Part shown: piece after piece, positions 3,238-63,053 of the stretch
Layout: each line of letters starts with the position of its first letter
Position numbering within the stretch: position 1 is the first letter of the stretch
Sequence record: LR746311
Length of the DNA: 64,000 nucleotides
Reading direction: 5' to 3' (one strand)
DNA from: Shigella phage vB_SsoM_113
Made by a program: the position numbers and the translations under genes
The notes under the pieces: generated by a model
The model's database searches: none
What the model saw: the letters and a program-made list of their open reading frames with translations, nothing else
What the model was told of the DNA's origin: nothing

Positions 3238-3501
3238 ATGGATAATTACGGCGAACTGTTCAACTTCTTTATGAAATGCGTTTCAGAAGATTTCGGTCGT
3301 ACAGTGAATGATATTAAAGTTATCGGTCCTGATCATCCGATGTTTGAAACTTACGCAGTAATGGGTAATGAAGACGGTCAGTGGTATACTGTAAAAGTTG
3401 TGATTAATATGTTCACAGCAGAAGGTTATGTTAAACTGTCTTCTAAAGTTTACCACGATAACGACGAAATCGCAGAAGAATATTTCAATAATATGAAATA
3501 A
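3238..3501 (+). CDS. hypothetical protein (87 aa)
   Basis: ATG at 3238 with GGAG 6 nt upstream; the track ORF from 3118 would run through its own promoter. Confidence 0.6.
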   Translation: MDNYGELFNFFMKCVSEDFGRTVNDIKVIGPDHPMFETYAVMGNEDGQWYTVKVVINMFTAEGYVKLSSKVYHDNDEIAEEYFNNMK

Positions 3502-3502
3502 G

Positions 3503-3531
3503 TTTACACAGGCTCATGATTGAGATATTAT
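3503..3531 (+). promoter_or_regulatory. T4-type early promoter with flanking 10-bp dyad
   Basis: GTTTAC at 3503-3508, -10 TATTAT; perfect inverted repeat ACAGGCTCAT / ATGAGCCTGT at 3508-3517 and 3530-3539. Confidence 0.6.
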
Positions 3532-3556
3532 GAGCCTGTAACTTGAGGAGAACATT

Positions 3557-3892
3557 ATGAAACGTAACTTTAGTAAAGCTTTTTGTAATCGAAATTATTA
3601 TCCCGAAGAGCTTTTTGAATCTAAGGAATTTAAAGAGTTTAACGAACGCTCTCAAAACATGCCTGTACAGTGGGTATTGGATTATGCTAACCGTATCTTT
3701 GAAGGTGTACGTTTCGTTGGCCCTGATGATGAAGCTCCTTATTTTAAAAAGGCTTGGGAACTTGCTAACCAAGCATATATCAATGCTTTAGAATCTTCTA
3801 AAGGCACTGACGATGATTTTACTTTATTGGCTATCAATGATGCCGTTATCGAGGCCATTGACGTCTTTATCGATGAGATAGACGAAGAATAA
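3557..3892 (+). CDS. hypothetical acidic protein (111 aa)
   Basis: ORF track; SD GAGGAG upstream; promoter upstream. Confidence 0.65.
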   Translation: MKRNFSKAFCNRNYYPEELFESKEFKEFNERSQNMPVQWVLDYANRIFEGVRFVGPDDEAPYFKKAWELANQAYINALESSKGTDDDFTLLAINDAVIEAIDVFIDEIDEE

Positions 3893-6388: not shown

Positions 6389-6825
6389 AAACATTATCAG
6401 CTGGTATTATCTTTATGACAGAAGATAAAGATTTATTTATGGGACGAGTTACCGGTTCTCGTAAACCTGGAATGATGGCACATCGCTGGGATATTCCAAA
6501 GGGGCGTGTAGAAAGTTCTGATTTGAATGCACTGGAAGCTGCAAAAAGAGAATGCTCAGAAGAGACTGGTTTTATCGATTATAATCCAGACCTTCTAGAA
6601 GACTTAGGTGTATTTAAATATTCTAGTAATAAAGACTTACAGTTATTTTATTATACGATTCCAGTAGAGCATGAGATGTTTAGAAATTGCCATTGCGAGT
6701 CTTATTTTGAAAATAAAGATGGCGTTATGATTCCAGAGATGGATGCTTTTGCTCTTATTCCTCGTACTCAGTGGCAATATGTGATGGGTCCTTCACTTTA
6801 CCGAATAATGAACAACCTCTTTTAA
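6385..6825 (+). CDS. nudE: Nudix hydrolase
   Basis: Nudix box GRVESSDLNALEAAKRECSEETGF; immediately upstream of e, as T4 nudE (e.1). Confidence 0.75.
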   Translation: MKTLSAGIIFMTEDKDLFMGRVTGSRKPGMMAHRWDIPKGRVESSDLNALEAAKRECSEETGFIDYNPDLLEDLGVFKYSSNKDLQLFYYTIPVEHEMFRNCHCESYFENKDGVMIPEMDAFALIPRTQWQYVMGPSLYRIMNNLF

Positions 6826-7356
<531 letters not shown>

Positions 7357-7363
7357 AGCTATT

Positions 7364-7392
7364 TACTTTCTCCTAGAATTGTGATAGTATAT
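7364..7392 (+). promoter_or_regulatory. early promoter-like element upstream of denV
   Basis: -35-like ATTTAC, 17-bp spacer, TGTGATAGTAT extended -10. Confidence 0.5.
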
Positions 7393-7415
7393 TCACAGTT
7401 ACTTGGAGGGATAAA

Positions 7416-7832
7416 ATGACTCGTATTAATTTGACTTTAGTATCTGAACTTGCTGATCAACATTTAATCGCAGAATACCGTGAATTGCCGCGTGTTTTTG
7501 GTATAGTTCGTAAGCATGTGGCAAACGGTAAGCGCGTTAAAGATTTTAAAATATCTTCTAAATTTATTTTAGGTTCTGGTCATGTTACTTTCTTTTACGA
7601 TAAGTTAGAATTTTTGCGAAAGCGTCAATCGGACATTATAACGGAATGCTTAAAACGCGGGTTCAGTATAAAAGATACTGAAGTTCCTGACATCAGCGAT
7701 ATTCCAGTAGAATGGAAAAATGATTATAATCCATGCAAATCAGCTATTAAGTTGAGTCAACAACGACTCGATGAAAAAATTTTAATGAAGCCACACTGGT
7801 ATAAGTATTACGGCAAAAATATTTACATTTAA
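7416..7832 (+). CDS. denV: endonuclease V (pyrimidine dimer DNA glycosylase)
   Basis: 138 aa; N-terminus [17 protein letters not shown]...[10 protein letters not shown] matches recalled T4 endoV. Confidence 0.95.
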
Positions 7833-9970: not shown

Positions 9971-9973
9971 CTG

Positions 9974-10002
9974 TTTACTTTTCCTCTTGACTGTGGTATA
10001 AT
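9974..10002 (+). promoter_or_regulatory. T4-type early promoter with flanking dyad
   Basis: GTTTAC, 17-bp spacer, TGGTATAAT; inverted repeat CTCTTGACTG / CAGTTAAGAG brackets the -10. Confidence 0.7.
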
Positions 10003-10029
10003 TTTTCTATCAGTTAAGAGGAGAACAAC

Positions 10030-10491
10030 ATGACTATCAATACAGAAGTTTTTATCCGTCGAAATAAGCTTCGTCGTCATTTTGAGTCGGAGTTTCGTCA
10101 AATTAACAATGAGATTCGTGAGGCATCAAAAGCAGCAGGAGTCTCATCGTTTCATCTAAAATATTCTCAACATCTTCTTGATCGTGCAATTCAACGGGAG
10201 ATTGATGAGACATATGTTTTTGAATTATTCCATAAAATAAAAGACCATGTTTTAGAAGTTAATGAATTCCTGAGTATGCCTCCGCGTCCTGACATTGACG
10301 AGGATTTTATTGATGGGGTTGAATATCGTCCTGGACGTTTAGAAATCACAGATGGAAATCTTTGGCTTGGATTTACGGTTTGTAAGCCTAATGAGAAGTT
10401 CAAAAACCCGTCACTTCAATGCAGGATGGCAATTATCAACAGTCGTCGTTTACCAGGAAAGGCTTCTAAAGCAGTAATTAAAACTCAATGA
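10030..10491 (+). CDS. regB: RegB endoribonuclease
   Basis: 153 aa; matches recalled T4 RegB in length and N-terminus MTINTEVFIRRNKLRRHFESEF. Confidence 0.85.
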   Translation: MTINTEVFIRRNKLRRHFESEFRQINNEIREASKAAGVSSFHLKYSQHLLDRAIQREIDETYVFELFHKIKDHVLEVNEFLSMPPRPDIDEDFIDGVEYRPGRLEITDGNLWLGFTVCKPNEKFKNPSLQCRMAIINSRRLPGKASKAVIKTQ

Positions 10492-14983: not shown

Positions 14984-15013
14984 GTTTACAAGTTGGCAAG
15001 GTTATGGTATAGT
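14984..15013 (+). promoter_or_regulatory. T4-type early promoter with imperfect flanking dyad
   Basis: GTTTAC, 18-bp spacer, TGGTATAGT. Confidence 0.65.
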
Positions 15014-15145
15014 AATCTTGTCAACTGCCAAGGAGAAGAGAATGAAAGTTTTGTTTGTTGTGTATGTGATGATTCAATACAATTACCCAATGTTTACTTA
15101 TAATCTGGTGAACAACATTATTGATATTATTCAAAGGAGCATGTA

Positions 15146-18410: not shown

Positions 18411-18440
18411 GTTTACAGTAGGGTAGTAGTGTGATACTAT
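18411..18440 (+). promoter_or_regulatory. T4-type early promoter with flanking dyad
   Basis: GTTTAC at 18411-18416, -10 TACTAT; inverted repeat TAGGGTAGTAG / CTATTACCCTA. Confidence 0.6.
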
Positions 18441-18476
18441 TACCCTATCAAAACAAATGTGAAATTGGAGAATAAA

Positions 18477-19445
18477 ATGAAAACTGTAACTATCAATAAG
18501 GGTATCTACTTCGGTAAAGAAATCTCTGGAACTTTTGAGCTCTTAGGCGAATGGTTCCCAGATAATGCTCCGGTAGATGCACAAGGAGATGGTAAAGTTT
18601 TTGTTGAAATTGACGGTAAACGTCGCGGTGTTTGGGTTTACAAATCAGATATTTCATATGATGGTGTAAAAGTTGAAGAAGTTAAAGAATCGTATGAAGA
18701 TATGAAAACCCGCATTAATAAAAGATTTAATGTTATGGGAATGATGACGAATGGTATTATTAATGGAAATATTCGTTCATTGATTATCTCTGGTGCAGCA
18801 GGTATTGGTAAAACGTATTCTTTAGATAAAGCTTTGAATAAAGCAAATGATATTGGATACATTGAATATAAAAGCATTAATGGTAAAATCTCTGGTATTG
18901 GTCTTTATGAGCAGCTTTGGAATAATCGTGAAGAGAATTCTGTCCTTTTGATTGATGATGTGGATGTTTTCTCTGATATGGATATTCTTAATCTTCTAAA
19001 AGCCGCTCTGGACACTGGAGAGACCCGTAAAGTCTGCTGGAGCACTGCGTCTTCTTACTTAGAAGAAAAAGGCATTGAGCGTGAGTTTGAATTTAAAGGA
19101 ACGATTGTTTTTATCACAAACGTTGACATTGACCGCGAATTAGACCGTGGTACTAAACTTGCTCCACATTTACAAGCATTAGTGTCCCGCTCGGTTTATT
19201 TAGATTTGGGTGTTCACACTAATGAAGAAATTATGGTCAGGGTTGAAGATGTTATTCTTTCAACTGACATGATGCAAAAGCGCGGTCTTTCTGATGAAGA
19301 AACTTATAAAGCATTATCATGGATGAAAGTTAATGTTAATCGTTTACGCAATGTTTCACTGCGTACTGCTCTTTATCTTGCTGACTTTATTATGACCGAC
19401 AAAAACGGTTGGGAAGAAATCGCTGAGGTTACTCTTCTGAAATAA
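18477..19445 (+). CDS. AAA+/P-loop ATPase (322 aa)
   Basis: Walker A GAAGIGKT, Walker B LLIDDVD, sensor-like FITNVD; ATG at 18477 with GGAG upstream. Confidence 0.7.
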   Translation: MKTVTINKGIYFGKEISGTFELLGEWFPDNAPVDAQGDGKVFVEIDGKRRGVWVYKSDISYDGVKVEEVKESYEDMKTRINKRFNVMGMMTNGIINGNIRSLIISGAAGIGKTYSLDKALNKANDIGYIEYKSINGKISGIGLYEQLWNNREENSVLLIDDVDVFSDMDILNLLKAALDTGETRKVCWSTASSYLEEKGIEREFEFKGTIVFITNVDIDRELDRGTKLAPHLQALVSRSVYLDLGVHTNEEIMVRVEDVILSTDMMQKRGLSDEETYKALSWMKVNVNRLRNVSLRTALYLADFIMTDKNGWEEIAEVTLLK

Positions 19446-19851: not shown

Positions 19852-19881
19852 GTTTACAAGACTGTTCCTCTGTGGTACTAT
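19852..19881 (+). promoter_or_regulatory. T4-type early promoter (repeated cassette)
   Basis: GTTTACAAGACTGTTCCTCTGTGGTACTATACAACTATCAACT, identical over about 45 bp to 45324-45366. Confidence 0.7.
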
Positions 19882-19909
19882 ACAACTATCAACTACGGAG
19901 GAACACAAA

Positions 19910-20437
19910 ATGAACGCTAAAGATATTTTCAACTTGGTAAATTACAACGATGGTAAATTTAAATCTGAGGCACAAAGCAAGTTCTTTAATGACATCTCAA
20001 TCGGAGGTGAAATCACTGTTGATGGAGGACAAATTTACAAATCCCGTTGGAATTGGATCGTTATTATTGATGAGATCGGTATTGTAGAAATTTACAAAAA
20101 TACGAATAAAAATCGTACATTACACTGGTCTCGTGATACTAACGAACAGTACAAAAAGGATAAAGCATCTAAATTATCTCGTGTAACTCAAGAAGATATT
20201 GAGTTCATCAAGAAAGATATTTTAATGTATGATAACTTAATTGCTGAAGAGCAAGCTGTTATTGATAAATTTGACGAGATTAAAGCTTCTCGTGAAATTC
20301 CTGATTTTATGAAAGAATCAGTAAATGAACGATACACTCTCATTTCAGAGCGTATTGAAACTTACAAAAAGCAAAGAGCTGAACGCCAAAATACTCTTCG
20401 GAAGTTTGAAGAACGGTTAAAGACGGTACTCGCATAA
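19910..20437 (+). CDS. hypothetical protein (175 aa)
   Basis: ORF track; SD GGAGG upstream. Confidence 0.6.
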   Translation: MNAKDIFNLVNYNDGKFKSEAQSKFFNDISIGGEITVDGGQIYKSRWNWIVIIDEIGIVEIYKNTNKNRTLHWSRDTNEQYKKDKASKLSRVTQEDIEFIKKDILMYDNLIAEEQAVIDKFDEIKASREIPDFMKESVNERYTLISERIETYKKQRAERQNTLRKFEERLKTVLA

Positions 20438-20440
20438 CCG

Positions 20441-20463
20441 CTTTATACCAAGGATGGTATAAT
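20441..20463 (+). promoter_or_regulatory. extended -10 promoter-like element inside a palindrome
   Basis: TTATACC-AAGGAT-GGTATAAT: TGGTATAAT extended -10 within a 7-bp inverted repeat; no clear -35. Confidence 0.35.
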
Positions 20464-21806: not shown

Positions 21807-22829
21807 ATGAAAACTCGTTCTCAAATTGAAGATATGGTTCGTAATGCCAGCTATACTCGTGATGCTATGACGTTTTTGTGTGAAAATAATTTAGACCTTG
21901 GTAAAGTTAATTGTTCCATTCATGCCTTTAAACATCTGAACAGCAGTGAATGGGTGCGCAATTTTAACCAAGCAGGATATATTACACAAATGACGGCTCG
22001 TGAGCAGCTCACTGATTTCTGTAAAACTATTGATTATAAAAATCCTCTATTTGTTCAAGGTGTTGGCCAAAGTAAGGTCGATTTATCATCTGGATTTTTC
22101 AATCCAAATCATTATCGTATTGAATGGAGATTTATTGCTCTATTCCGTAAACAATTAAAACAAATTTTATCAATTGCGAGTCGATTAAAAGGTTCTGATA
22201 TTAACTTAAAGAATCTGAAATTTGATGGTTATACTCTTCAGATGGAAGTAAGACCATTAAAAGAAAATAACAGAACTGCGCGAATTAGCTTTAAACCTAA
22301 TACAAAAAATTCTCTTTCAATTTGCGAATGCCTTAAATCACAGTTGACAGAAGCATTTAAGTATATGGATGTTGTTGCCGCTGTTCAGTCTAAGATTTTA
22401 CCTCATTTTGAGCGAAATTGGGAACATACAACAACGTATGAACTTGATATGATCGTTTCATTTAAATACGATTTTTTGAGAAAGGACGAAGTCCCACAAG
22501 AGAAAAAGCAGGAAGTGCAAGATAACTTAAATTTATCCAATTACTCATCAAACGATCCTAAATTTTGGATGTATAGTTCAAGTAATAAAGATGCATGGAA
22601 ATTCAATAAAGTGAATTTTCTTCCTGTTGAAAATCCGAGTCTTAAACCTGTTGAAAAATGGCATGCGGATGCGATTGAGAAGTCTATCAAGGCAGTAGAT
22701 GATGAACTCGTTAAAGCAACTAATGAAGTGTTAGAAGCTGAAAAGATGCTAGAAAAAGCTCAAGAAAAAGTCAAAAATCTTACGAAGCAACGTTCTAAAC
22801 TGAACAATGCACTAAATGCACTAAACTAG
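21807..22829 (+). CDS. paralog family member B, C-terminal coiled coil (340 aa)
   Basis: ORF track; internal motif WRFIALFRKQLKQILSIASRL shared with member C; coiled-coil tail. Confidence 0.65.
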   Translation: MKTRSQIEDMVRNASYTRDAMTFLCENNLDLGKVNCSIHAFKHLNSSEWVRNFNQAGYITQMTAREQLTDFCKTIDYKNPLFVQGVGQSKVDLSSGFFNPNHYRIEWRFIALFRKQLKQILSIASRLKGSDINLKNLKFDGYTLQMEVRPLKENNRTARISFKPNTKNSLSICECLKSQLTEAFKYMDVVAAVQSKILPHFERNWEHTTTYELDMIVSFKYDFLRKDEVPQEKKQEVQDNLNLSNYSSNDPKFWMYSSSNKDAWKFNKVNFLPVENPSLKPVEKWHADAIEKSIKAVDDELVKATNEVLEAEKMLEKAQEKVKNLTKQRSKLNNALNALN

Positions 22830-22859
22830 TTTACTTTGCCACAAGGATGTGGTATAATG
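22830..22859 (+). promoter_or_regulatory. T4-type early promoter
   Basis: GTTTAC, 18-bp spacer, TGGTATAAT. Confidence 0.65.
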
Positions 22860-22886
22860 TTCTTACTTTCTACTGAGGAGATTAAT

Positions 22887-23888
22887 ATGACTCGTAACGA
22901 ATATATCAAATCATTCAATAGCGTTATTGATGATAAAGTTAAGACTGTGTCTAGTCAGAATAGTGTTATTTCCATTATCAATCAATGGCTCAATAATACT
23001 GATGCAAGTATTGTTTCTTCAAGCAAATTTATTCATGAAGTTCATAAAATTTCTAGTCGCGAATATAAAGATGATATTAAGGAAACTTTTAAAGGTTCTC
23101 GTCTTCTTTCATATTTAGTTAATCAAGATATTCTTGGTAAATTTGGGAAAGAAATTAAACGAACTAAAGATGTAGTAGGATACAGTTGGTTCGGTGATGT
23201 TAATTCTTATCATCTTAATAATAAAGAAGACCCTGAGAATATTTTTACTCGTCGTTGGATTAGTAATTTTAGACTTTTCAAGAAGCAAATTCTAAAATCA
23301 GCTTCTAAATTATGCTATGGTGATTATCGTCAAATCCATCCTTGGGCTTCTGATATGATTATCATAAAAGAATATGAGCTTGATAAAAATAAAGCAGCTA
23401 TTTTTGTGAATTATGAATTTTTTACACCAGAAGCTAATCAAAAGAACATTAATAAATTTTTCTCAATTGCTAGCGATATAACTCGTCAGTTAGAGACCGC
23501 ATTACTTTGTATGGAAACAGTAGAAAATATTCATACTTATCCTTTTAAGAATATATGCGGTTGGGAAGGATATAAAATTGTAGTTAGTCTCCGTGAAGTA
23601 AAGTGTGCGTACTCACCGACTGATAAAGAAATTTACCAACAAAAATGTGATGAAATTGTGAATACTCCTAAAGAAGAAACTACCCTTGAGGAACTAATGG
23701 AATGTCTTGACGATTCACCTGAACCGGTAGAAATTCGTCCAGAAGTTATTGCACTAGAAAAAGCTTATAAAGAAGTTCTAGAAATTTCTAATAAAGCGCA
23801 GAAAGATTATGAGCAGGCTAAAAGGATTTGGGAAGAATCTGTTAATCGCCTGGATCGTCTTGAACAAGCTTTACAGTTAATTAAGTAA
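22887..23888 (+). CDS. paralog family member C, C-terminal coiled coil (333 aa)
   Basis: ATG at 22887 after GAGGAG; internal motif WISNFRLFKKQILKSASKL; coiled-coil tail. Confidence 0.65.
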   Translation: MTRNEYIKSFNSVIDDKVKTVSSQNSVISIINQWLNNTDASIVSSSKFIHEVHKISSREYKDDIKETFKGSRLLSYLVNQDILGKFGKEIKRTKDVVGYSWFGDVNSYHLNNKEDPENIFTRRWISNFRLFKKQILKSASKLCYGDYRQIHPWASDMIIIKEYELDKNKAAIFVNYEFFTPEANQKNINKFFSIASDITRQLETALLCMETVENIHTYPFKNICGWEGYKIVVSLREVKCAYSPTDKEIYQQKCDEIVNTPKEETTLEELMECLDDSPEPVEIRPEVIALEKAYKEVLEISNKAQKDYEQAKRIWEESVNRLDRLEQALQLIK

Positions 23889-26961: not shown

Positions 26962-27137
26962 TGAAAACCGAATTAATTTATACTGAAAAGTTAAATGGTG
27001 GTAAAGTCTGGAAACTTTTTATTAAAGGAAGTCCTACTGACCCTAATATGACCACTTGTGTAGGAACTTATTCTCGTCCTACTAAAAAGATGATTCGACA
27101 ATATAAGCGATTGCATCGAATGTTTTACAATACTTGA
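26961..27137 (+). CDS. hypothetical small basic protein (58 aa)
   Basis: Hand-translated ORF starting at TAATG overlap. Confidence 0.35.
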   Translation: MKTELIYTEKLNGGKVWKLFIKGSPTDPNMTTCVGTYSRPTKKMIRQYKRLHRMFYNT

Positions 27138-27178
27138 AAATAATAAATACCCTTATCTATTTAAGGTAAGGGTTTATT

Positions 27179-27652
27179 ATGTTATTGACTGGCAAATTAT
27201 ATAAAGAAGAAAAACAGAAATTTTATAACGCACAAAACGGTAAATGCTTAATTTGCCAACGAGAACTAAATCCTGATGTTCAAGCTAATCACCTTGACCA
27301 TGACCATGAATTAAATGGACCAAAAGCAGGAAAGGTACGTGGATTGCTCTGTAATCTTTGCAATGCAGCGGAAGGTCAAATGAAACATAAATTTAATCGT
27401 TCTGGCTTAAAGGGACAAGGCGTTGATTATCTTGAATGGTTAGAAAATTTACTTACTTATTTAAAATCCGATTACACCCAAAATAATATTCACCCTAACT
27501 TCGTTGGAGATAAATCAAAGGAATTTTCTCGTTTAGGAAAAGAGGAAATGATGGCTGAGATGCTTCAAAGAGGATTTGAATATAATGAATCTGACACTAA
27601 AACACAATTAATAGCTTCATTTAAGAAGCAGCTTAGAAAGAGTTTAAAATGA
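27179..27652 (+). CDS. 49: endonuclease VII (Holliday junction resolvase)
   Basis: 157 aa; Cys-rich N-terminus CLICQRELNP...HLDHDHELNG matches recalled T4 gp49. Confidence 0.9.
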   Translation: MLLTGKLYKEEKQKFYNAQNGKCLICQRELNPDVQANHLDHDHELNGPKAGKVRGLLCNLCNAAEGQMKHKFNRSGLKGQGVDYLEWLENLLTYLKSDYTQNNIHPNFVGDKSKEFSRLGKEEMMAEMLQRGFEYNESDTKTQLIASFKKQLRKSLK

Positions 27653-32405: not shown

Positions 32406-32418
32406 CTGATATCCTCTA

Positions 32419-32462
32419 TGCTTTAAGATAGATCTTCAAATATTATGATATAATAGATCTAT
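32419..32462 (+). promoter_or_regulatory. MotA-box-like motif and -10-like elements inside an 8-bp dyad, upstream of gene 55
   Basis: TGCTTTA at 32419-32425; TATAAT at 32449-32454; inverted repeat ATAGATCT / AGATCTAT; spacing not ideal for a canonical middle promoter. Confidence 0.3.
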
Positions 32463-32483
32463 GAATTGAGCTAAGAGGTGAAA

Positions 32484-33041
32484 ATGTCAGAAACTAAGCC
32501 TAAATATAATTACGTAAACAATAAAGAGCTTTTACAAGCTATTATTGATTGGAAAACAGAATTAGCAAATAATAAAGACCCAAATAAAGTAGTTCGTCAG
32601 AATGATACTATCGGATTAGCCATTATGCTTATTGCAGAAGGCTTATCTAAACGTTTCAACTTTTCAGGATACACCCAATCCTGGAAACAAGAAATGATTG
32701 CAGATGGTATAGAAGCTTCTATTAAGGGGCTTCATAATTTTGATGAAACGAAATATAAAAACCCACATGCATATATAACTCAAGCTTGTTTTAATGCATT
32801 CGTCCAACGTATTAAAAAAGAACGTAAGGAAGTTGCAAAGAAATACAGTTACTTCGTTCACAATGTCTATGACAGTCGTGACGACGATATGGTTGCGTTA
32901 GTAGATGAAACTTTTATTCAAGACATCTACGATAAAATGACGCATTACGAAGAATCAACCTATAGAACACCGGGGGCTGAAAAGAAAAGTGTTGTAGACG
33001 ATTCTCCTAGTTTGGATTTTTTATATGAGGCTAACGATTAA
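32484..33041 (+). CDS. 55: late-transcription sigma factor gp55
   Basis: 185 aa; [24 protein letters not shown] matches recalled T4 gp55; ATG at 32484 after GAGG. Confidence 0.9.
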
Positions 33042-37424: not shown

Positions 37425-39103
37425 AGAATTTTAAATTAAACCGAGTTAGGTATCAAAATATAATGTCAGTAGGTGGAAATCCTATTGACATTCAACTAGA
37501 TAAGTTTCAAAAAACTCTTATTACTGGACGAAATGGCGGTGGTAAGTCTACTATGTTAGAAGCCATCACATTTGGGCTTTTTGGCAAGCCATTTCGTGAT
37601 GTAAAGAAAGGTCAATTAATAAACAGCACAAATAAGAAAGAACTTTTAGTTGAACTGTGGATGGAATATGATGAAAAAAAGTACTATATCAAAAGAGGAC
37701 AAAAACCGAATGTTTTCGAAATCACCGTTAACGATACACGTCTTAATGAATCTGCCAGCAGTAAAGATTTCCAAGCAGAATTTGAACAGCTTATCGGAAT
37801 GTCATACGCCAGTTTCAAACAGATCGTCGTACTCGGCACGGCTGGATATACCCCTTTTATGGGCTTATCCACTCCTGCAAGAAGAAAACTCGTCGAAGAC
37901 CTGCTCGAAGTAGGAACATTAGCTGAAATGGATAAGCTCAATAAAGCACTAATACGTGAATTAAATTCACAAAACCAAGTGCTTGATGTTAAAAAAGATA
38001 GTATTATCCAACAAATTAAAATATATAATGATAACGTTGAACGCCAGAAAAAATTAACTGGTGATAACCTTACTCGTCTACAGAATATGTATGATGATTT
38101 GGCAAAAGAAGCCAGAACGCTAAAATCGGAAATAGAAGAAGCTAATGAAAGATTAGTTAATATTGTTTTGGATGAAGACCCGACTGATGCATTTAATAAA
38201 ATCGGTCAAGAAGCATTTTTAATTAAATCAAAAATTGACTCGTATAATAAAGTCATTAATATGTATCACGAAGGTGGATTATGTCCAACCTGTTTGTCAC
38301 AATTAAGTTCCGGTGATAAAGTTGTTTCTAAAATTAAAGATAAAGTTTCTGAATGCACACATTCGTTTGAACAGCTTTCAACACATCGTGATAATTTAAA
38401 AGTTCTCGTTGATGAATACCGAGATAATATTAAAACCCAGCAGACGTTGGCGAATGATATTCGCAATAAAAAGCAATCTCTAATCACGACGGTAGATAAA
38501 GCTAAAAAAGTTAAAGCAGCTATAGAAAAAGCATCATCCGAGTTTATTGACCATGCTGATGAAATAGCACTGCTTCAAGAAGAACTTGATAAAATTGTTA
38601 AGACAAAAACTAATTTAGTAATGGAAAAATACCACAGAGGAATTTTGACTGATATGCTCAAAGATTCTGGTATTAAAGGTGCTATTATTAAAAAGTACAT
38701 TCCATTATTTAATAAGCAAATTAACCATTATCTTAAAATAATGGAAGCGGATTATGTGTTTACATTAGATGAAGAATTTAATGAGACAATTAAATCCCGT
38801 GGTCGCGAAGATTTTAGTTATGCTTCATTTAGTGAAGGTGAAAAAGCACGAATCGATATTGCTCTTTTATTTACTTGGCGTGATATTGCTTCTATCGTAT
38901 CTGGTGTTAGTATTAGTACATTAATTCTTGATGAAGTGTTTGATGGGTCATTTGATGCCGAAGGTATTAAAGGTGTAGCTAATATTATAAATTCAATGAA
39001 AAATACTAATGTTTTTATAATTTCGCATAAAGACCATGACCCGCAAGAATATGGTCAGCATCTTCAAATGAAGAAAGTTGGTCGATTTACTGTAATGGTT
39101 TAA
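37421..39103 (+). CDS. 46: recombination endonuclease subunit gp46 (Rad50-like ATPase)
   Basis: 560 aa; Walker A GRNGGGKST, long coiled coil, CPTC zinc hook, signature/Walker B near C-terminus; GTG start. Confidence 0.92.
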   Translation: MKNFKLNRVRYQNIMSVGGNPIDIQLDKFQKTLITGRNGGGKSTMLEAITFGLFGKPFRDVKKGQLINSTNKKELLVELWMEYDEKKYYIKRGQKPNVFEITVNDTRLNESASSKDFQAEFEQLIGMSYASFKQIVVLGTAGYTPFMGLSTPARRKLVEDLLEVGTLAEMDKLNKALIRELNSQNQVLDVKKDSIIQQIKIYNDNVERQKKLTGDNLTRLQNMYDDLAKEARTLKSEIEEANERLVNIVLDEDPTDAFNKIGQEAFLIKSKIDSYNKVINMYHEGGLCPTCLSQLSSGDKVVSKIKDKVSECTHSFEQLSTHRDNLKVLVDEYRDNIKTQQTLANDIRNKKQSLITTVDKAKKVKAAIEKASSEFIDHADEIALLQEELDKIVKTKTNLVMEKYHRGILTDMLKDSGIKGAIIKKYIPLFNKQINHYLKIMEADYVFTLDEEFNETIKSRGREDFSYASFSEGEKARIDIALLFTWRDIASIVSGVSISTLILDEVFDGSFDAEGIKGVANIINSMKNTNVFIISHKDHDPQEYGQHLQMKKVGRFTVMV

Positions 39104-39158
39104 TTTATAAGAGATTATGCTTTAATTTATTAGAGTATAATCTCTATGGAGGAAAAAC

Positions 39159-45323: not shown

Positions 45324-45353
45324 GTTTACAAGACTGTTCCTCTGTGGTACTAT
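45324..45353 (+). promoter_or_regulatory. T4-type early promoter (repeated cassette)
   Basis: TTTTTCACAAAACTGTTTACAAGACTGTTCCTCTGTGGTACTATACAACTATCAAC. Confidence 0.7.
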
Positions 45354-45387
45354 ACAACTATCAACCAATACAAATTTGGAGAATGAA

Positions 45388-49997: not shown

Positions 49998-51425
49998 GTG
50001 GTAGAAATTATTCTTTCCCATCTCATATTTGATCAAGCTTATTTTTCAAAAGTTTGGCCATATATGGATTCAGAATATTTTGAAAGTGGTCCAGCTAAAA
50101 ATACATTCAAATTAATTAAATCTCATGTTAATGAATACCATAGCGTTCCATCTATTAATGCGTTAAATGTTGCATTAGAAAATAGTTCATTTACTGAAAC
50201 AGAATATTCTGGTGTAAAAACACTTATTTCAAAACTGGCCGATTCGCCAGAAGACCACAACTGGTTAGTAAAAGAAACAGAAAAATATGTTCAGCAAAGG
50301 GCGATGTTTAATGCTACGTCTAAAATAATTGAAATTCAAACTAATGCTGAGCTTCCTCCAGAAAAACGAAATAAGAAAATGCCAGATGTAGGTGCTATTC
50401 CTGACATCATGCGCCAAGCATTATCAATTTCATTTGATAGTTACGTTGGTCATGATTGGATGGATGACTACGAAGCACGTTGGCTATCTTATATGAATAA
50501 AGCTCGTAAGGTTCCATTTAGACTCAAAATTCTAAATAAAATTACTAAAGGTGGAGCTGAAACTGGAACACTGAACGTTTTAATGGCTGGTGTTAACGTC
50601 GGTAAGTCATTAGGTCTGTGTTCATTGGCAGCAGATTATTTGCAGCTCGGACATAATGTTCTTTACATTTCCATGGAAATGGCAGAAGAAGTCTGTGCTA
50701 AGCGTATTGATGCTAATATGCTTGATGTTTCTCTTGATGACATTGATGATGGGCATATTTCTTACGCTGAGTATAAAGGAAAAATGGAAAAATGGCGTGA
50801 GAAATCTACTCTTGGACGTTTAATCGTTAAACAGTATCCTACTGGTGGAGCAGACGCTAATACATTCAGGTCTCTCTTGAATGAATTGAAGCTCAAGAAG
50901 AATTTTGTTCCAACAATCATTATTGTTGACTATCTGGGTATTTGTAAATCTTGCCGCATCAGAGTTTATTCAGAAAATAGTTACACAACTGTTAAAGCTA
51001 TCGCAGAGGAATTGCGTGCTCTGGCTGTTGAAACCGAAACTGTTCTTTGGACCGCAGCACAGGTTGGTAAACAAGCTTGGGACTCTTCTGATGTTAACAT
51101 GAGCGATATTGCAGAATCTGCCGGCCTTCCAGCAACAGCCGATTTTATGCTTGCGGTCATTGAAACCGAGGAGCTAGCAGCTGCTGAACAACAACTCATT
51201 AAGCAAATCAAATCACGATATGGTGATAAGAATAAATGGAATAAGTTTTTGATGGGTGTTCAAAAAGGAAATCAAAAATGGGTAGAAATTGAGCAAGATT
51301 CTACTCCAACCGAAGTGAACGAAGTAGCAGGTTCACAGCAGATTCAGGCTGAACAGAATCGCTATCAAAGAAACGAATCCGCTCGAGCTCAGTTAGATGC
51401 TTTGGCAAATGAATTAAAATTTTAG
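49998..51425 (+). CDS. 41: replicative DNA helicase gp41
   Basis: 475 aa; GTG start; Walker A GVNVGKS; matches recalled T4 gp41 N-terminus MVEIILSHLIFDQAYFSKV. Confidence 0.95.
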   Translation: MVEIILSHLIFDQAYFSKVWPYMDSEYFESGPAKNTFKLIKSHVNEYHSVPSINALNVALENSSFTETEYSGVKTLISKLADSPEDHNWLVKETEKYVQQRAMFNATSKIIEIQTNAELPPEKRNKKMPDVGAIPDIMRQALSISFDSYVGHDWMDDYEARWLSYMNKARKVPFRLKILNKITKGGAETGTLNVLMAGVNVGKSLGLCSLAADYLQLGHNVLYISMEMAEEVCAKRIDANMLDVSLDDIDDGHISYAEYKGKMEKWREKSTLGRLIVKQYPTGGADANTFRSLLNELKLKKNFVPTIIIVDYLGICKSCRIRVYSENSYTTVKAIAEELRALAVETETVLWTAAQVGKQAWDSSDVNMSDIAESAGLPATADFMLAVIETEELAAAEQQLIKQIKSRYGDKNKWNKFLMGVQKGNQKWVEIEQDSTPTEVNEVAGSQQIQAEQNRYQRNESARAQLDALANELKF

Positions 51426-51454
51426 TTTACAAGCCGACAAGACTATGGTATAGT
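51425..51454 (+). promoter_or_regulatory. T4-type early promoter with 12-bp flanking dyad
   Basis: GTTTAC, -10 TGGTATAGT; inverted repeat CCGACAAGACTA / TAGTCTTGTTGG. Confidence 0.65.
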
Positions 51455-51483
51455 AGTCTTGTTGGTTAAATGAGGAGATTGTT

Positions 51484-51666
51484 ATGGAATTGGTAAAGGT
51501 AGTTTTTATGGGGTGGTTTAAGAACGAAAGCATGTTTACTAAAGAGATCACAATGATGAAAGATGACGTTCAATGGGCTACTACTCAATATGCTGAAGTT
51601 AATAAAGCGCTAGTTAAAGCTTTCATTGATGACAAGAAGGTATGTGAAGTGGATTGCCGAGGATAA
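51484..51666 (+). CDS. dmd: Dmd, inhibitor of RnlA/LsoA toxins
   Basis: 60 aa; MELVKVVFMGWFKNESMFTKEI... matches recalled T4 Dmd (gene 61.5). Confidence 0.9.
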   Translation: MELVKVVFMGWFKNESMFTKEITMMKDDVQWATTQYAEVNKALVKAFIDDKKVCEVDCRG

Positions 51667-57417: not shown

Positions 57418-57447
57418 GTTTACTTTCCTTCCTAACAATGATATGAT
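57418..57447 (+). promoter_or_regulatory. T4-type early promoter
   Basis: GTTTAC, 18-bp spacer, -10 TATGAT. Confidence 0.6.
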
Positions 57448-57473
57448 AGCTTCTGAAGTATATGGAGGCTATC

Positions 57474-58097
57474 ATGATTATTAATCTCGCAGATGTTGAA
57501 CAGTTATCTATAAAAGCTGAAAGTGTTGATTTTCAATATGATATGTACAAAATGGTCTGTGAAAAATTTACTGACTTTGAACAGTCAGTTCTTTGGCAGT
57601 GTATGGAAGCCAAAAAGAATGAAGCTCTTCATCGGCAGTTGAATAAAATCGTTAAAAAGCATTTAACTAAATCGCCTTATCAGCTATATCGTGGTATATC
57701 AAAATCGACAAAAGAACTCATTAAAGATTTACAAGTTGGAGAAGTGTTTTCAACGAACAGAGTAGATTCATTTACTACTAGTTTGCACACAGCATGTGGT
57801 TTTTCTTATGTTGAATATTCCACTGAAATAATATTTCGCTTAAAAACTGACAAAGCTTTTAATTATTCTGACCATATCAGCGATATTATACTTTCTTCTC
57901 CTAATACTGAGTTTAAGTATACATATGAAGATACTGATGGATTAGATTCAGAACGTACTGATAACTTAATGATGATTGTACGTGAACAAGAATGGATGAT
58001 TCCAATTGGAAAGTATAAAATAACTTCTATTTCAAAAGAAAAATTACACGATTCATTTGGAACATTTAAAGTGTATGATATTGAGGTAGTTGAATGA
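57474..58097 (+). CDS. modB: ADP-ribosyltransferase ModB-like
   Basis: 207 aa from ATG 57474 after GGAGG; paralog of next ORF; size and order match T4 modB then modA (recalled). Confidence 0.7.
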   Translation: MIINLADVEQLSIKAESVDFQYDMYKMVCEKFTDFEQSVLWQCMEAKKNEALHRQLNKIVKKHLTKSPYQLYRGISKSTKELIKDLQVGEVFSTNRVDSFTTSLHTACGFSYVEYSTEIIFRLKTDKAFNYSDHISDIILSSPNTEFKYTYEDTDGLDSERTDNLMMIVREQEWMIPIGKYKITSISKEKLHDSFGTFKVYDIEVVE

Positions 58098-62384: not shown

Positions 62385-62414
62385 GTTTACAAACTCTTGG
62401 GACCAGAGTATAAT
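62385..62414 (+). promoter_or_regulatory. T4-type early promoter with perfect 7-bp flanking dyad
   Basis: GTTTAC, -10 TATAAT; inverted repeat GGGACCA / TGGTCCC. Confidence 0.65.
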
Positions 62415-62458
62415 GGTCCCGTGGAGTATAAAATCTTTTTAACAAGTGAGAGATAACT

Positions 62459-62956
62459 ATGATTATTAATATTGGTGAAATTGCTCGTGTATCTGATAAA
62501 TCCCGTTCTAAAGCAACAGGAAAATTGGTTGAAATTGTAAGCATTCAGCTTAAACATGGTGTTAAAGATGAAGATTCTGAAGTAAAAGTGCGTATCATTC
62601 CTAAAGATGGAAAGTCTAAACCTCAGTTTGGCTATGTTCGTGCGAAATTTCTTGAATCTGCGTTTTTGAAAGCTGTTCCTGCTAAAGGAATTGAAACGAT
62701 TGATACTTCGCACGTAGGTGTAGACTTTAAGTGGAAACTCGGTCAAGCTATTAAGTTCGTTGCTCCTTATGAATTCGAATTTACTGAAGATGAGGAAGGG
62801 GTTGTTCAAAAACACCGTACTCGCGCTATGTGTGCATACATTACCGATCAGTGGGTAGAAGATGGCGTTAAGTTGTACAACGCGGTATTTTTAGGAACAT
62901 ACAAAGTCATTCCTGAAAGTTGGATTAAACACTATAGCAAAGCCCGCTATGCATAA
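62459..62956 (+). CDS. hypothetical protein (165 aa)
   Basis: ORF track; SD GAGAGA upstream. Confidence 0.6.
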   Translation: MIINIGEIARVSDKSRSKATGKLVEIVSIQLKHGVKDEDSEVKVRIIPKDGKSKPQFGYVRAKFLESAFLKAVPAKGIETIDTSHVGVDFKWKLGQAIKFVAPYEFEFTEDEEGVVQKHRTRAMCAYITDQWVEDGVKLYNAVFLGTYKVIPESWIKHYSKARYA

Positions 62957-62980: not shown

Positions 62981-63010
62981 ATATACATCGGTAGTTGATT
63001 ATGGTACTAT
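62981..63010 (+). promoter_or_regulatory. early promoter cassette variant with degenerate -35
   Basis: ATATAC in place of GTTTAC, then TGGTACTAT; leader near-identical to the 3195-3240 leader. Confidence 0.45.
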
Positions 63011-63053
63011 ATCAATATCAACTACTGATACAGAAAACAACTTGGAGAATAAA

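Follow-up and report, generated by a model that had tools for sequence, protein, structure and literature searches.

Stem-loops around the -10 boxes of early and of middle promoters within the early region of a T4-like Shigella phage

The sequence studied here is a 64,000-nucleotide (nt) stretch of Shigella phage vB_SsoM_113 (record LR746311), referred to below as the window. It is 95-98% identical to many Tequatrovirus (T4-like) genomes and corresponds to the T4-like early region; it is oriented antiparallel to the T4 map and its genes are all on the + strand. It carries, in this order, tRNAs, e.8...e, denV, regB, vs, tk, rI, mobD.x, nrdC.x, 49, nrdD, 55, a-gt, 47, 46, 45, 44, 62, regA, 43, 42, uvsX, 41, dmd, 61, modB/modA, srd, dda, dexA and motB. 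This order is based on the sizes of the open reading frames (ORFs), the T4 annotation, PHROG matches and the known T4 map; the PHROG matches were the basis for the denV, gp55, Dmd, modB-like and MotB identities. A number of the junctions between these genes hold promoters whose -10 box is surrounded by an inverted repeat. With a single exception (site 5 below) these dyads are real, selected RNA hairpins, and the cassettes are composite promoter/stem-loop elements of the already described PeSL (promoter-early stem-loop) type, so that the interpretation given by an earlier sequence-only reading is essentially right.

Nineteen clear intergenic early promoters of the form GTTTAC-N18-TAnnnT, each followed by a Shine-Dalgarno sequence (SD) and an ATG, were collected from the window. 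The SD and ATG follow the -10 box by 14-44 nt in all 19 and by 25-29 nt at most of them, and the 30 nt upstream of the promoters contain on average 74% A+T, compared with 65% in the window. An independent consensus promoter scan recovered 3503, 3894, 9974, 14985 and others. The predicted transcription start (+1) was placed 7 nt downstream of the -10 box. The T4 reference records NC_000866 and AF158101 hold coding-sequence, tRNA and misc features only and no promoter or terminator features, and an Rfam search of the window returned 6 tRNAs only, with no family matching these hairpins.

All the arm pairs of the eight dyads listed by the sequence-only reading are present at the coordinates given, with matches of 10/10, 9/10, 9/12 (Watson-Crick), 10/11, 7/7, 8/8, 11/12 and 7/7 at sites 1 to 8; site 3 had been given as 10/12, a value reached only when one G:T is counted. 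The dyads had been assigned to early promoters, which is correct for six of them, whereas sites 5 and 6 are MotA-box middle promoters. The arms flank the -10 box broadly, but several stems use the 3' half of the hexamer, so the -10 is not always merely in the loop. Further hairpins, absent from that list, were found at the -35 positions 7361, 19852 and 57418 and at 62987-63029, together with a weaker one at 22829.

For the fold null 2,000 shuffles were made per promoter, with the -10 hexamer fixed and the flanks permuted. Against these flank shuffles the minimum free energy (MFE) at six sites, about -18 to -22 kcal/mol, was far beyond chance (z -5.0 to -7.3). For the 19 early promoters the Fisher combined p was 4e-6 and the distribution was bimodal: the promoters with the -35 at 3502, 7361, 9973, 14984, 18411, 19852, 51425 and 62385 reached -18 to -22 kcal/mol (z -4.7 to -7.3), the one at 22829 was intermediate (-14), and the remaining ten were indistinguishable from shuffles. 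In all, 9-10 of the 19 carry a hairpin. In a window-wide scan with 50-nt windows, where clusters were counted at MFE <= -15 kcal/mol, 68 clusters of strong local folds were obtained against 27-37 in shuffles, the promoter hairpins being among the strongest; perfect dyads of at least 7 bp numbered 214 in the window and 96-155 in shuffles. The comparison with a shuffled null, which had been suggested for the dyads, thus came out clearly for six of them, while site 5 alone is at chance level, no better than the window-wide dyad background, and site 6 is weak by itself.

The survey of related phages drew on the window and on 35 related loci (IMG/VR, metagenomes, T4, T2, Mosigvirus and others) and gave 162 unique cassettes, the sequences of which are not phylogenetically independent. 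The scans of IMG/VR and the JGI metagenomes with RegB and the modB-like protein gave 11, 6 and 8 loci, and the diversity was taken from GenBank phage records instead. One record, OM982647.1 (phage ST2, 171 kb), is T4-like (Mosigvirus-like), its taxonomy line reads Guernseyvirinae; Kagunavirus, and it looks mis-assigned.

By geometry, the +1 is predicted at every site to lie either within the loop or where the 3' arm ends. Because it lies within the loop or the 3' arm, the promoter's own transcript would be without the 5' arm, and the hairpin would form only in read-through RNA. Where the -35 abuts the upstream stop codon, free variation is left only to the 18-nt spacer and to the first transcribed stretch, one on each side of the -10 box, and therefore the arms bracket it. 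Two classes could be distinguished. In class A (regB, denV, nrdC.8, modB-like and gene 55) the 3' arm takes in the downstream SD or AUG and the 5' arm has an anti-SD run (TCTCC/TTCCTC) directly after the -35 or the Mot box. In class B (e.7, mobD.2, nrdC.10, dmd and motB) the stem reaches no further than about +1 to +9 with its 3' arm, which leaves the SD accessible. Pairing of the SD or AUG in the long transcript was found in class A only, and not at 3502, 14984, 18411, 51425 and 62385. In the spacers of the promoters the anti-SD tetramers are enriched (CTCC 15% vs 2%, TCCT 29% vs 4%), and no enrichment was found there for GGAG.

The site 2 cassette, between vs.3 and regB, belongs to class A and occupies 9973-10032 on the + strand, as all cassettes described here do (MFE -21.3 kcal/mol, the unit of all following MFE values; z -7.0). 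Its -35 is at 9973-9978 and its -10 (TATAAT) at 9997-10002, the arms are 9979-9996/10007-10025 and the ATG is at 10030; the core arms, 9982-9993/10011-10022, include the SD AAGAGGAG. The unpaired probability of the regB SD was 0.10 in the read-through transcript vs 0.49 in the promoter's own transcript. Hairpins of the regB type with different inner stems were found in Gelderlandvirus and Dhakavirus, in a group resembling Mosigvirus and in a third group from IMG/VR; in all of these TCTCCT... right after the -35 pairs with ...AGGAGA. Karam- and Jiaodavirus combine an outer TCTCC/GGAGA stem with an inner one, GGGCTAT/ATAGCCC, that lies over the -10, and in Muldoonvirus the stem spans the ATG; the 10/11 stem of a Klebsiella phage leaves the SD out, and in Aeromonas phage Aes508 there is a terminator upstream and the embedded hairpin is absent. 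RNAalifold on a MAFFT alignment of the regB promoters of 8 lineages gave no stem but the outer anti-SD/SD one, with 8 pairs and a weak energy; since the inner stems differ in register, each lineage was folded separately. Across 5-9 genera the hairpins of regB and gene 55 recur, rebuilt from other arms.

The denV cassette, an early promoter between e and denV, lies at 7361-7418 (MFE -18.1, z -4.7), with ATTTAC as the -35, TAGTAT at 7385-7390 as the -10 and inner arms 7375-7384/7393-7403. In its outer stem the anti-SD TTTCTCC (7367-7373) pairs with the SD GGAGGGA (7405-7411), which is followed by the ATG at 7416, and the unpaired probability of the SD was 0.20 in read-through RNA vs 0.50 in the own transcript. 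The stems at this junction differ in other phages yet still mask the SD (TTCCTCCAAG/CTTGGAGGAA; TCTCCTGTG/CACAGGAGA). The T4 denV cassette (GTTTACATCTCCTGTAG...CTACAGGAGA; T4 locus 5588) is almost the same as the regB cassette of Dhakavirus IME08 (235), so whole promoter/hairpin cassettes are shared among different genes in different genera.

Two more early promoters belong to class A. The cassette between nrdC.9 and nrdC.8 (19852-19912; MFE -20.2, z -6.2) has a 10/11 dyad with arms 19863-19876/19892-19905, the right arm ACGGAGGAACA holding the SD, and the ATG is at 19910. Its SD had an unpaired probability of 0.09 in read-through RNA vs 0.63 in the own transcript, and the spacer/SD duplex had an energy of -18.5 kcal/mol (z -5.5). 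The 42 nt from -35 to +15 (GTTTACAAGACTGTTCCTCTGTGGTACTATACAACTATCAAC) are identical in this promoter (19852-19893) and in the one after gene 43 (45324-45365), where the complementary ACGGAGGAACA SD arm is missing and an upstream terminator is present instead; this suggests a cassette duplication that may have been followed by local adaptation. The promoter of the modB-like ADP-ribosylase (57418-57476; MFE -15 to -18) has its -10, TATGAT, at 57442-57447, and the hairpin 57442-57454/57464-57476 covers the SD GGAGG and the ATG at 57474. Here the predicted +1 is at the end of the 5' arm, and a loop change in relatives lengthens the stem.

Site 6, the middle promoter of gene 55 (the late sigma factor), is the class A member that is not an early promoter. 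The 8-bp dyad of the sequence-only reading (32428-32435/32455-32462), weak by itself (core z -2.7), turned out to be the inner stem of a larger conserved structure, a three-tier hairpin at 32407-32489 (MFE -23.6 to -25.3) masking the gene 55 SD. The Mot box is ATGCTTTAA, and in the outer stem GATATCCTCT (32407-32417) pairs with AGAGG..ATGTCA at 32474-32489, CCTCT being opposite the SD AGAGG. Mosigvirus has a compensatory change in the 8-bp dyad (ATAGGTCT/AGACCTAT); in Dhakavirus, Karamvirus CC31 and Klebsiella phage Roth68 the SD-masking arms have a different sequence, and a Krischvirus has a plain terminator instead of the hairpin. Site 5 is the MotA-type middle promoter of nrdC.7 (CGCTTTA-N12-TATAAT; 20439-20463). 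Its AT-rich 7/7 dyad TTATACC/GGTATAA begins at 20443, with the right arm overlapping the -10, has a core MFE of -8.4 (z -2.4) and is invariant among the relatives available. Another promoter-in-hairpin junction of the middle-promoter type was seen directly after gene 46: the arms of a strong hairpin at 39103-39152 (-19 to -22 kcal/mol) hold the Mot-box-like ATGCTTTAAT and TATAAT, and GGAGG and the ATG of 45.2 (39159) follow.

In class B, the site 1 cassette between e.8 and e.7 lies at 3502-3559 (MFE -19.9, z -5.7), with the -35 (GTTTAC) at 3502-3507, the -10 (TATTAT) at 3526-3531, arms 3508-3517/3530-3539 and an outer extension 3500-3504/3540-3544; the SD of e.7, GAGGAG, is unmasked before the ATG at 3557. 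The pair C3509:G3538 is found among relatives as CG, as UG and as UA (T4, Mosigvirus). In the T4 RefSeq record NC_000866.4 the 5' arm of this hairpin contains an ambiguous base N (GTTTACATAGGCTNATGATT), which artificially lowers the stability predicted for it. Site 4, before the nrdC.10 homologue (18411-18479; MFE -17.8, z -5.7), has the -10 TACTAT at 18435-18440 and arms 18418-18431/18435-18448 which end at the predicted +1; relatives have other hairpins at the same gene, GGTCT../..AGACC in one locus and TGGTATGAG/CTCATACCA in three others. Site 8, between dexA and motB (62385-62461; MFE -19.7, z -5.0), has the -10 TATAAT at 62409-62414 and arms 62393-62405/62414-62427.

The other two members of the class, site 3 between mobD.2a and mobD.2 (14984-15044; MFE -19.0, z -5.6) and site 7 between gene 41 and dmd (51425-51486; MFE -21.8, z -7.3), are paralogues with 84% identity. 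In both the -10 is TATAGT (15008-15013 and 51449-51454) and the helix is of 15 bp (14991-15005/15012-15026 and 51432-51446/51453-51467), with the ATG at 15042 and 51484, respectively. Among relatives the site 7 stem shows the changes C-G to U-G, G-U to A-U and A-U to G-U. In dmd orthologues outside Tequatrovirus no promoter junction was found upstream. The Dmd of phage HY01 is only 67% identical to that of the window, and the promoter/hairpin cassette upstream of it (HY01 locus 102-161) is nearly identical, which indicates a recombination joint at the boundary of cassette and gene.

Two further hairpins are less typical. The one at 62987-63029 (ATCGGTAGTTGAT/ATCAACTACTGAT, with TGGTACTAT in the loop; MFE -19.5) is paralogous to the 3165 cassette but has a degenerate -35, TATACA, and the matching paralogous cassettes in other Tequatrovirus loci do not fold (MFE about -3). 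At the early promoter between nrdC.5 and nrdC.4 (22829-22889; MFE -14.4, z -2.9) the hairpin GCCACAA/TGTGGT (22837-22854) lies within the spacer, so the -10 is not bracketed; a second small stem precedes the SD.

The sequence-only reading had supposed a variant of the promoter-plus-stem-loop cassettes of T4-type phages, and the cassettes do fit the published PeSL description (Arbiol et al. 2010, PMC2839356; Comeau et al. 2014, PMC4122927). According to PMC2839356, a PeSL of RB49 or phi1 combines a strong early promoter of the sigma70 type, AT-rich on its upstream side, with a stem-loop of variable sequence that can occupy any of five positions, and its 3' end holds an SD and a start codon; the subclass with the stem-loop between -35 and -10 or overlapping -10 is the most frequent one, and it is included in the fit. 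In that source the PeSLs are, like the cassettes of the window, intergenic, repeated in early 'hyperplastic' regions and situated beside gene replacements of close relatives. PeSLs, with the promoter TTTACW-N17-TAYWAT in T4/PST, and middle-promoter PmSLs were reported for the T4/PST and KVP40/nt-1 pairs (PMC4122927), and the PmSL is the equivalent of sites 5 and 6. There are differences as well. In the legend for the PST/T4 PeSLs the stem-loops are said to be 'just upstream' of the promoter, whereas about half of those in the window extend over the spacer, the -10 and the region of the start; the stems are not polyG/polyC here and are without U-tracts; and some of them use the downstream SD as their 3' arm, a feature which is mentioned neither in PMC4122927 nor in the accessible parts of PMC2839356.

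The occurrence of the hairpins depends on the type of junction. An embedded hairpin was present at 8 of the 10 window promoters whose -35 abuts the upstream stop (gap of at most 4 nt), and at 10 of the 13 promoters without an upstream terminator vs none of the six that have one (hypergeometric p ~0.003). These six (3165, 14172, 17934, 30671, 45324 and 55319) come after a canonical GC-rich tetraloop terminator with a T-run, so that at the early promoters of the window canonical UUCG-type terminators and embedded hairpins are mutually exclusive. The survey gave the same tendency, with hairpins in 62/87 tight junctions vs 16/75 looser ones, and in 70/127 cassettes without an upstream terminator vs 8/35 with one (Fisher p=0.001). 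The six tRNA genes are followed by very stable hairpins, in the region that in T4 codes for the small RNAs C and D, and CCCCRRCCGAAAGGTTGGGG terminators also occur repeatedly (repeat family D7); these features were noted at 588-1086, 1501-1550, 1744-1793 and 2329-2348.

This complementary distribution is also what one would see if the hairpins were plain terminators or attenuators of the upstream gene that overlap the next promoter by chance and have no translational role. Like intrinsic terminators, they are stable stem-loops ending a transcription unit. In OL960580, a close relative in GenBank, overlapping 'early promoter' and 'rho-independent terminator' entries stand at ipI, e.8/e.7, after e, at regB and at nrdC.7 (there a middle promoter with a terminator), the terminator calls coming from TransTermHP and WebGeSTer. 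According to PMC2839356, moreover, one RB49 PeSL stem-loop terminated strongly when placed in a lacZ construct, where it lowered read-through like rrnB T1. However, no U-tract follows any of the stems (the tails are AACTTGAGG, GAGAACAAC, CCAAGGAG, TCAAAACA and similar), and their G+C content is only 33-59%. A consensus terminator scan of the window found the canonical terminators at 1768, 2329, 3017, 14139 and 17885 and none of the embedded hairpins, which it misses because there is no U-run after them. In addition, the anti-SD/SD pairing at regB, denV, nrdC.8, modB and gene 55 is kept across genera while the inner stems change, and this goes beyond the needs of a pure terminator. We therefore regard plain terminators as an unlikely explanation.

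The hairpins stand exactly at cistron boundaries in read-through RNA, where RNase III or a similar endonuclease could separate the cistrons of polycistronic early RNA. RNase III substrates typically have about two helical turns and are longer than the stems found here, which have 10-15 bp and small loops, so that such processing is not indicated; conserved internal loops or cleavage motifs were not seen either. T4 early mRNAs are indeed heavily processed, but the actors reviewed are RegB, RNase E, RNase G and RNase LS and not RNase III (PMC3014915). RNase III sites were rejected on these grounds, and we consider them quite improbable.

The sequence-only reading had left open whether the structure matters in the DNA or in read-through transcripts. 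The question was approached through covariation in an ungapped alignment of the mobD.2 and dmd cassettes, their orthologues and a third paralogue, which share the 15-bp helix. All of the 150 helix cells pair, 9 of the 15 pairs show compensatory double changes, none of 500 shuffles matched the observed values, and in slid controls 21-66% of the cells were paired. Among the cells that are not Watson-Crick there were 28 G:U and no A:C. In the motB cassette family the 8-bp stem is likewise 100% paired, with 3/8 pairs double-changed (slid controls 35-50%). Single-step transitions in the stems were 11 from Watson-Crick to G:U and 4 to A:C (binomial p ~0.06). That G:U is kept in the mobD.2/dmd helix and A:C is not points to pairing in + strand RNA. 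The + strand RNA was also the more stable one at 11/11 window hairpins, by a mean difference of -7.1 kcal/mol. Background windows favoured + in 63% (mean -2.0 kcal/mol) when chosen on either strand, and in 83-89% (mean -3.8 to -4.6 kcal/mol) when chosen, as was in effect the case for the sites, by a stable fold of the + strand. Since the background also favours the + strand, the 11/11 count is a weak argument, and it is the G:U counts and how large the difference is that carry the strand argument; the survey count of 70/78 is similarly overstated by the GC skew. Together these patterns argue that the stems are under purifying and compensatory selection at the RNA level.

At the level of DNA, the dyads could be cruciforms or single-strand hairpins acting on promoter opening, replication or recombination, or symmetric protein sites. 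The repeats at 3508/3530 and 32428/32455 are perfect DNA palindromes, and recombination does concentrate at the cassettes. Among the dispersed direct repeats of the window they are the main families (D1-D5, D9), with stems that differ among the copies, and one cassette serves different genes in different phages, as in the T4 denV/IME08 regB pair and in a motB-type cassette at the e.7/e.6 locus in other phages. BLAST matches end at 3501 or 3560 in many genomes, and 17 of 85 distinct homology breakpoints fall in cassettes vs 3.5% expected (p=7e-9), an excess to be read with the fact that intergenic regions in general attract breakpoints. For RB49/phi1, PMC2839356 describes PeSL recombination leading to gene replacements and mini-circles, with crossovers in or beside the stem-loop. 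A cruciform would nevertheless suffer equally from G:T and A:C, and only the former is tolerated (28 vs 0); the reverse strand folds 7 kcal/mol worse on average, and arms of 7-15 bp are short for cruciform extrusion. The DNA cruciform was rejected on the G:U vs A:C asymmetry and the poorer folding of the reverse strand, and so was a single shared operator, since, as had been noticed before, the arms differ at every site, and they covary within a site among phages. Of the two levels proposed, read-through RNA is thus the one that agrees with the G:U counts, the + strand stability and the SD arms, and a DNA-level role is highly improbable. Chance matches in AT-rich intergenic sequence, for which one could cite the abundance of short perfect dyads in shuffled windows and site 5, no better than these, are refuted at all sites but that one by z of about -5 to -7 at nine promoters with bimodality, by the compensatory changes and by the tight-junction association, and have next to no probability left.

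A gate of the class A kind is known from late transcription. For the T4 genes e, soc, 49 and I-TevI, Uzan and Miller (PMC3014915) review hairpins that sequester the SD and have a late promoter inside them, so that only late transcripts are translated and translation is delayed to late times. The gene e hairpin itself lies in the window at 6820-6869 (MFE -16.2): two late-promoter motifs (TATAAATA) are inside the stem-loop and ACCTTCT pairs with the SD AGGAGGT before the ATG at 6862, which makes this known gate a useful positive control. At 27133-27182 the hairpin AATAAATACCCTTATC/..AAGGTAAGGGTTTATTATG sequesters the start codon of a 157-aa ORF at 27179, which by its size and its position before the 605-aa nrdD we take to be gene 49, and the hairpin matches the known gene 49 masking. 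Class A resembles these cases in that the SD or AUG is in a helix of long transcripts started upstream. From the geometry, its inner promoter is predicted to give a short translatable RNA. The inner promoters of the known set are late (TATAAATA), whereas those of class A are early sigma70-type or MotA middle promoters; class A would therefore work like the e-type gate yet is not a member of the late-gated set, and the effect predicted for it is that translation is bound to the period in which the early or middle promoter itself is active. No statement of an early- or middle-promoter version of this gate was found in the accessible literature.

Taken together, the sense-strand hairpins probably form only in read-through RNA, where those of class A would gate translation and those of class B would be the 3' stem-loop of the upstream unit. 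In class A the anti-SD would pair with the SD or AUG, so that read-through RNA would be translationally silent and only promoter-proximal transcripts would be translated, as an early- and middle-promoter counterpart of the e/soc/49/I-TevI gate. The early promoter from which regB is expressed is active for only 2-3 min before shut-off, the SD of regB is itself cut by RegB, and secondary structure shields GGAG from RegB (PMC3014915); we infer that the class A hairpin may also shield the SD from RegB cutting at GGAG. The class B hairpin is most likely the 3'-terminal stem-loop of the upstream unit, which may act as a read-through attenuator, as a barrier to 3'-exonucleases or as both, and it would stand in for a canonical terminator where the junction is too tight for a separate one.

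Several observations weigh against this reading. For class B the word terminator in the strict sense is unsupported, as the U-tract is missing, and the early promoters 3893, 51928 and 58752 have neither hairpin nor terminator. T2 carries a change that breaks the nrdC.8 stem, and the site 1 pair 3509:3538 is CA in two relative loci. The + strand bias is partly compositional (G>C skew) and its excess over background modest, and the lack of phylogenetic independence in the survey applies to all counts taken from its 162 cassettes. Finally, a literature search for mapped 5' or 3' ends of T4-type transcripts (Term-seq, cappable-seq) yielded no usable data, and both the start sites and termination stand as predictions.

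These results do not overturn the current understanding, and the phenomenon is largely known. What they would add to the PeSL description is the RNA-level selection, the substitution for terminators at tight junctions, and a subset that may gate RegB and gp55 by promoter of origin. For annotation, overlapping promoter and terminator calls at T4-type junctions can be read as one composite element and not as an error. More tentatively, and at somewhat less than even chance in our judgement, early and middle promoters of the Tevenvirinae may be placed systematically inside anti-SD/SD hairpins, so that genes sensitive to dosage or timing, such as regB, modB, denV and that of gp55, would be translated only from their own promoter and be silent on read-through RNA. 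If this is true, it would be a genus-spanning generalisation of the gene e gate, independent of promoter class, and the T-rich/C-rich 'GTTTAC-tTCTCC' spacer preference of T4 early promoters would partly reflect selection on RNA and not RNA polymerase contacts. The cassettes thereby offer predictions on how T4 decouples co-transcribed neighbouring early genes, and an account of why cassette boundaries may be preferred recombination joints.

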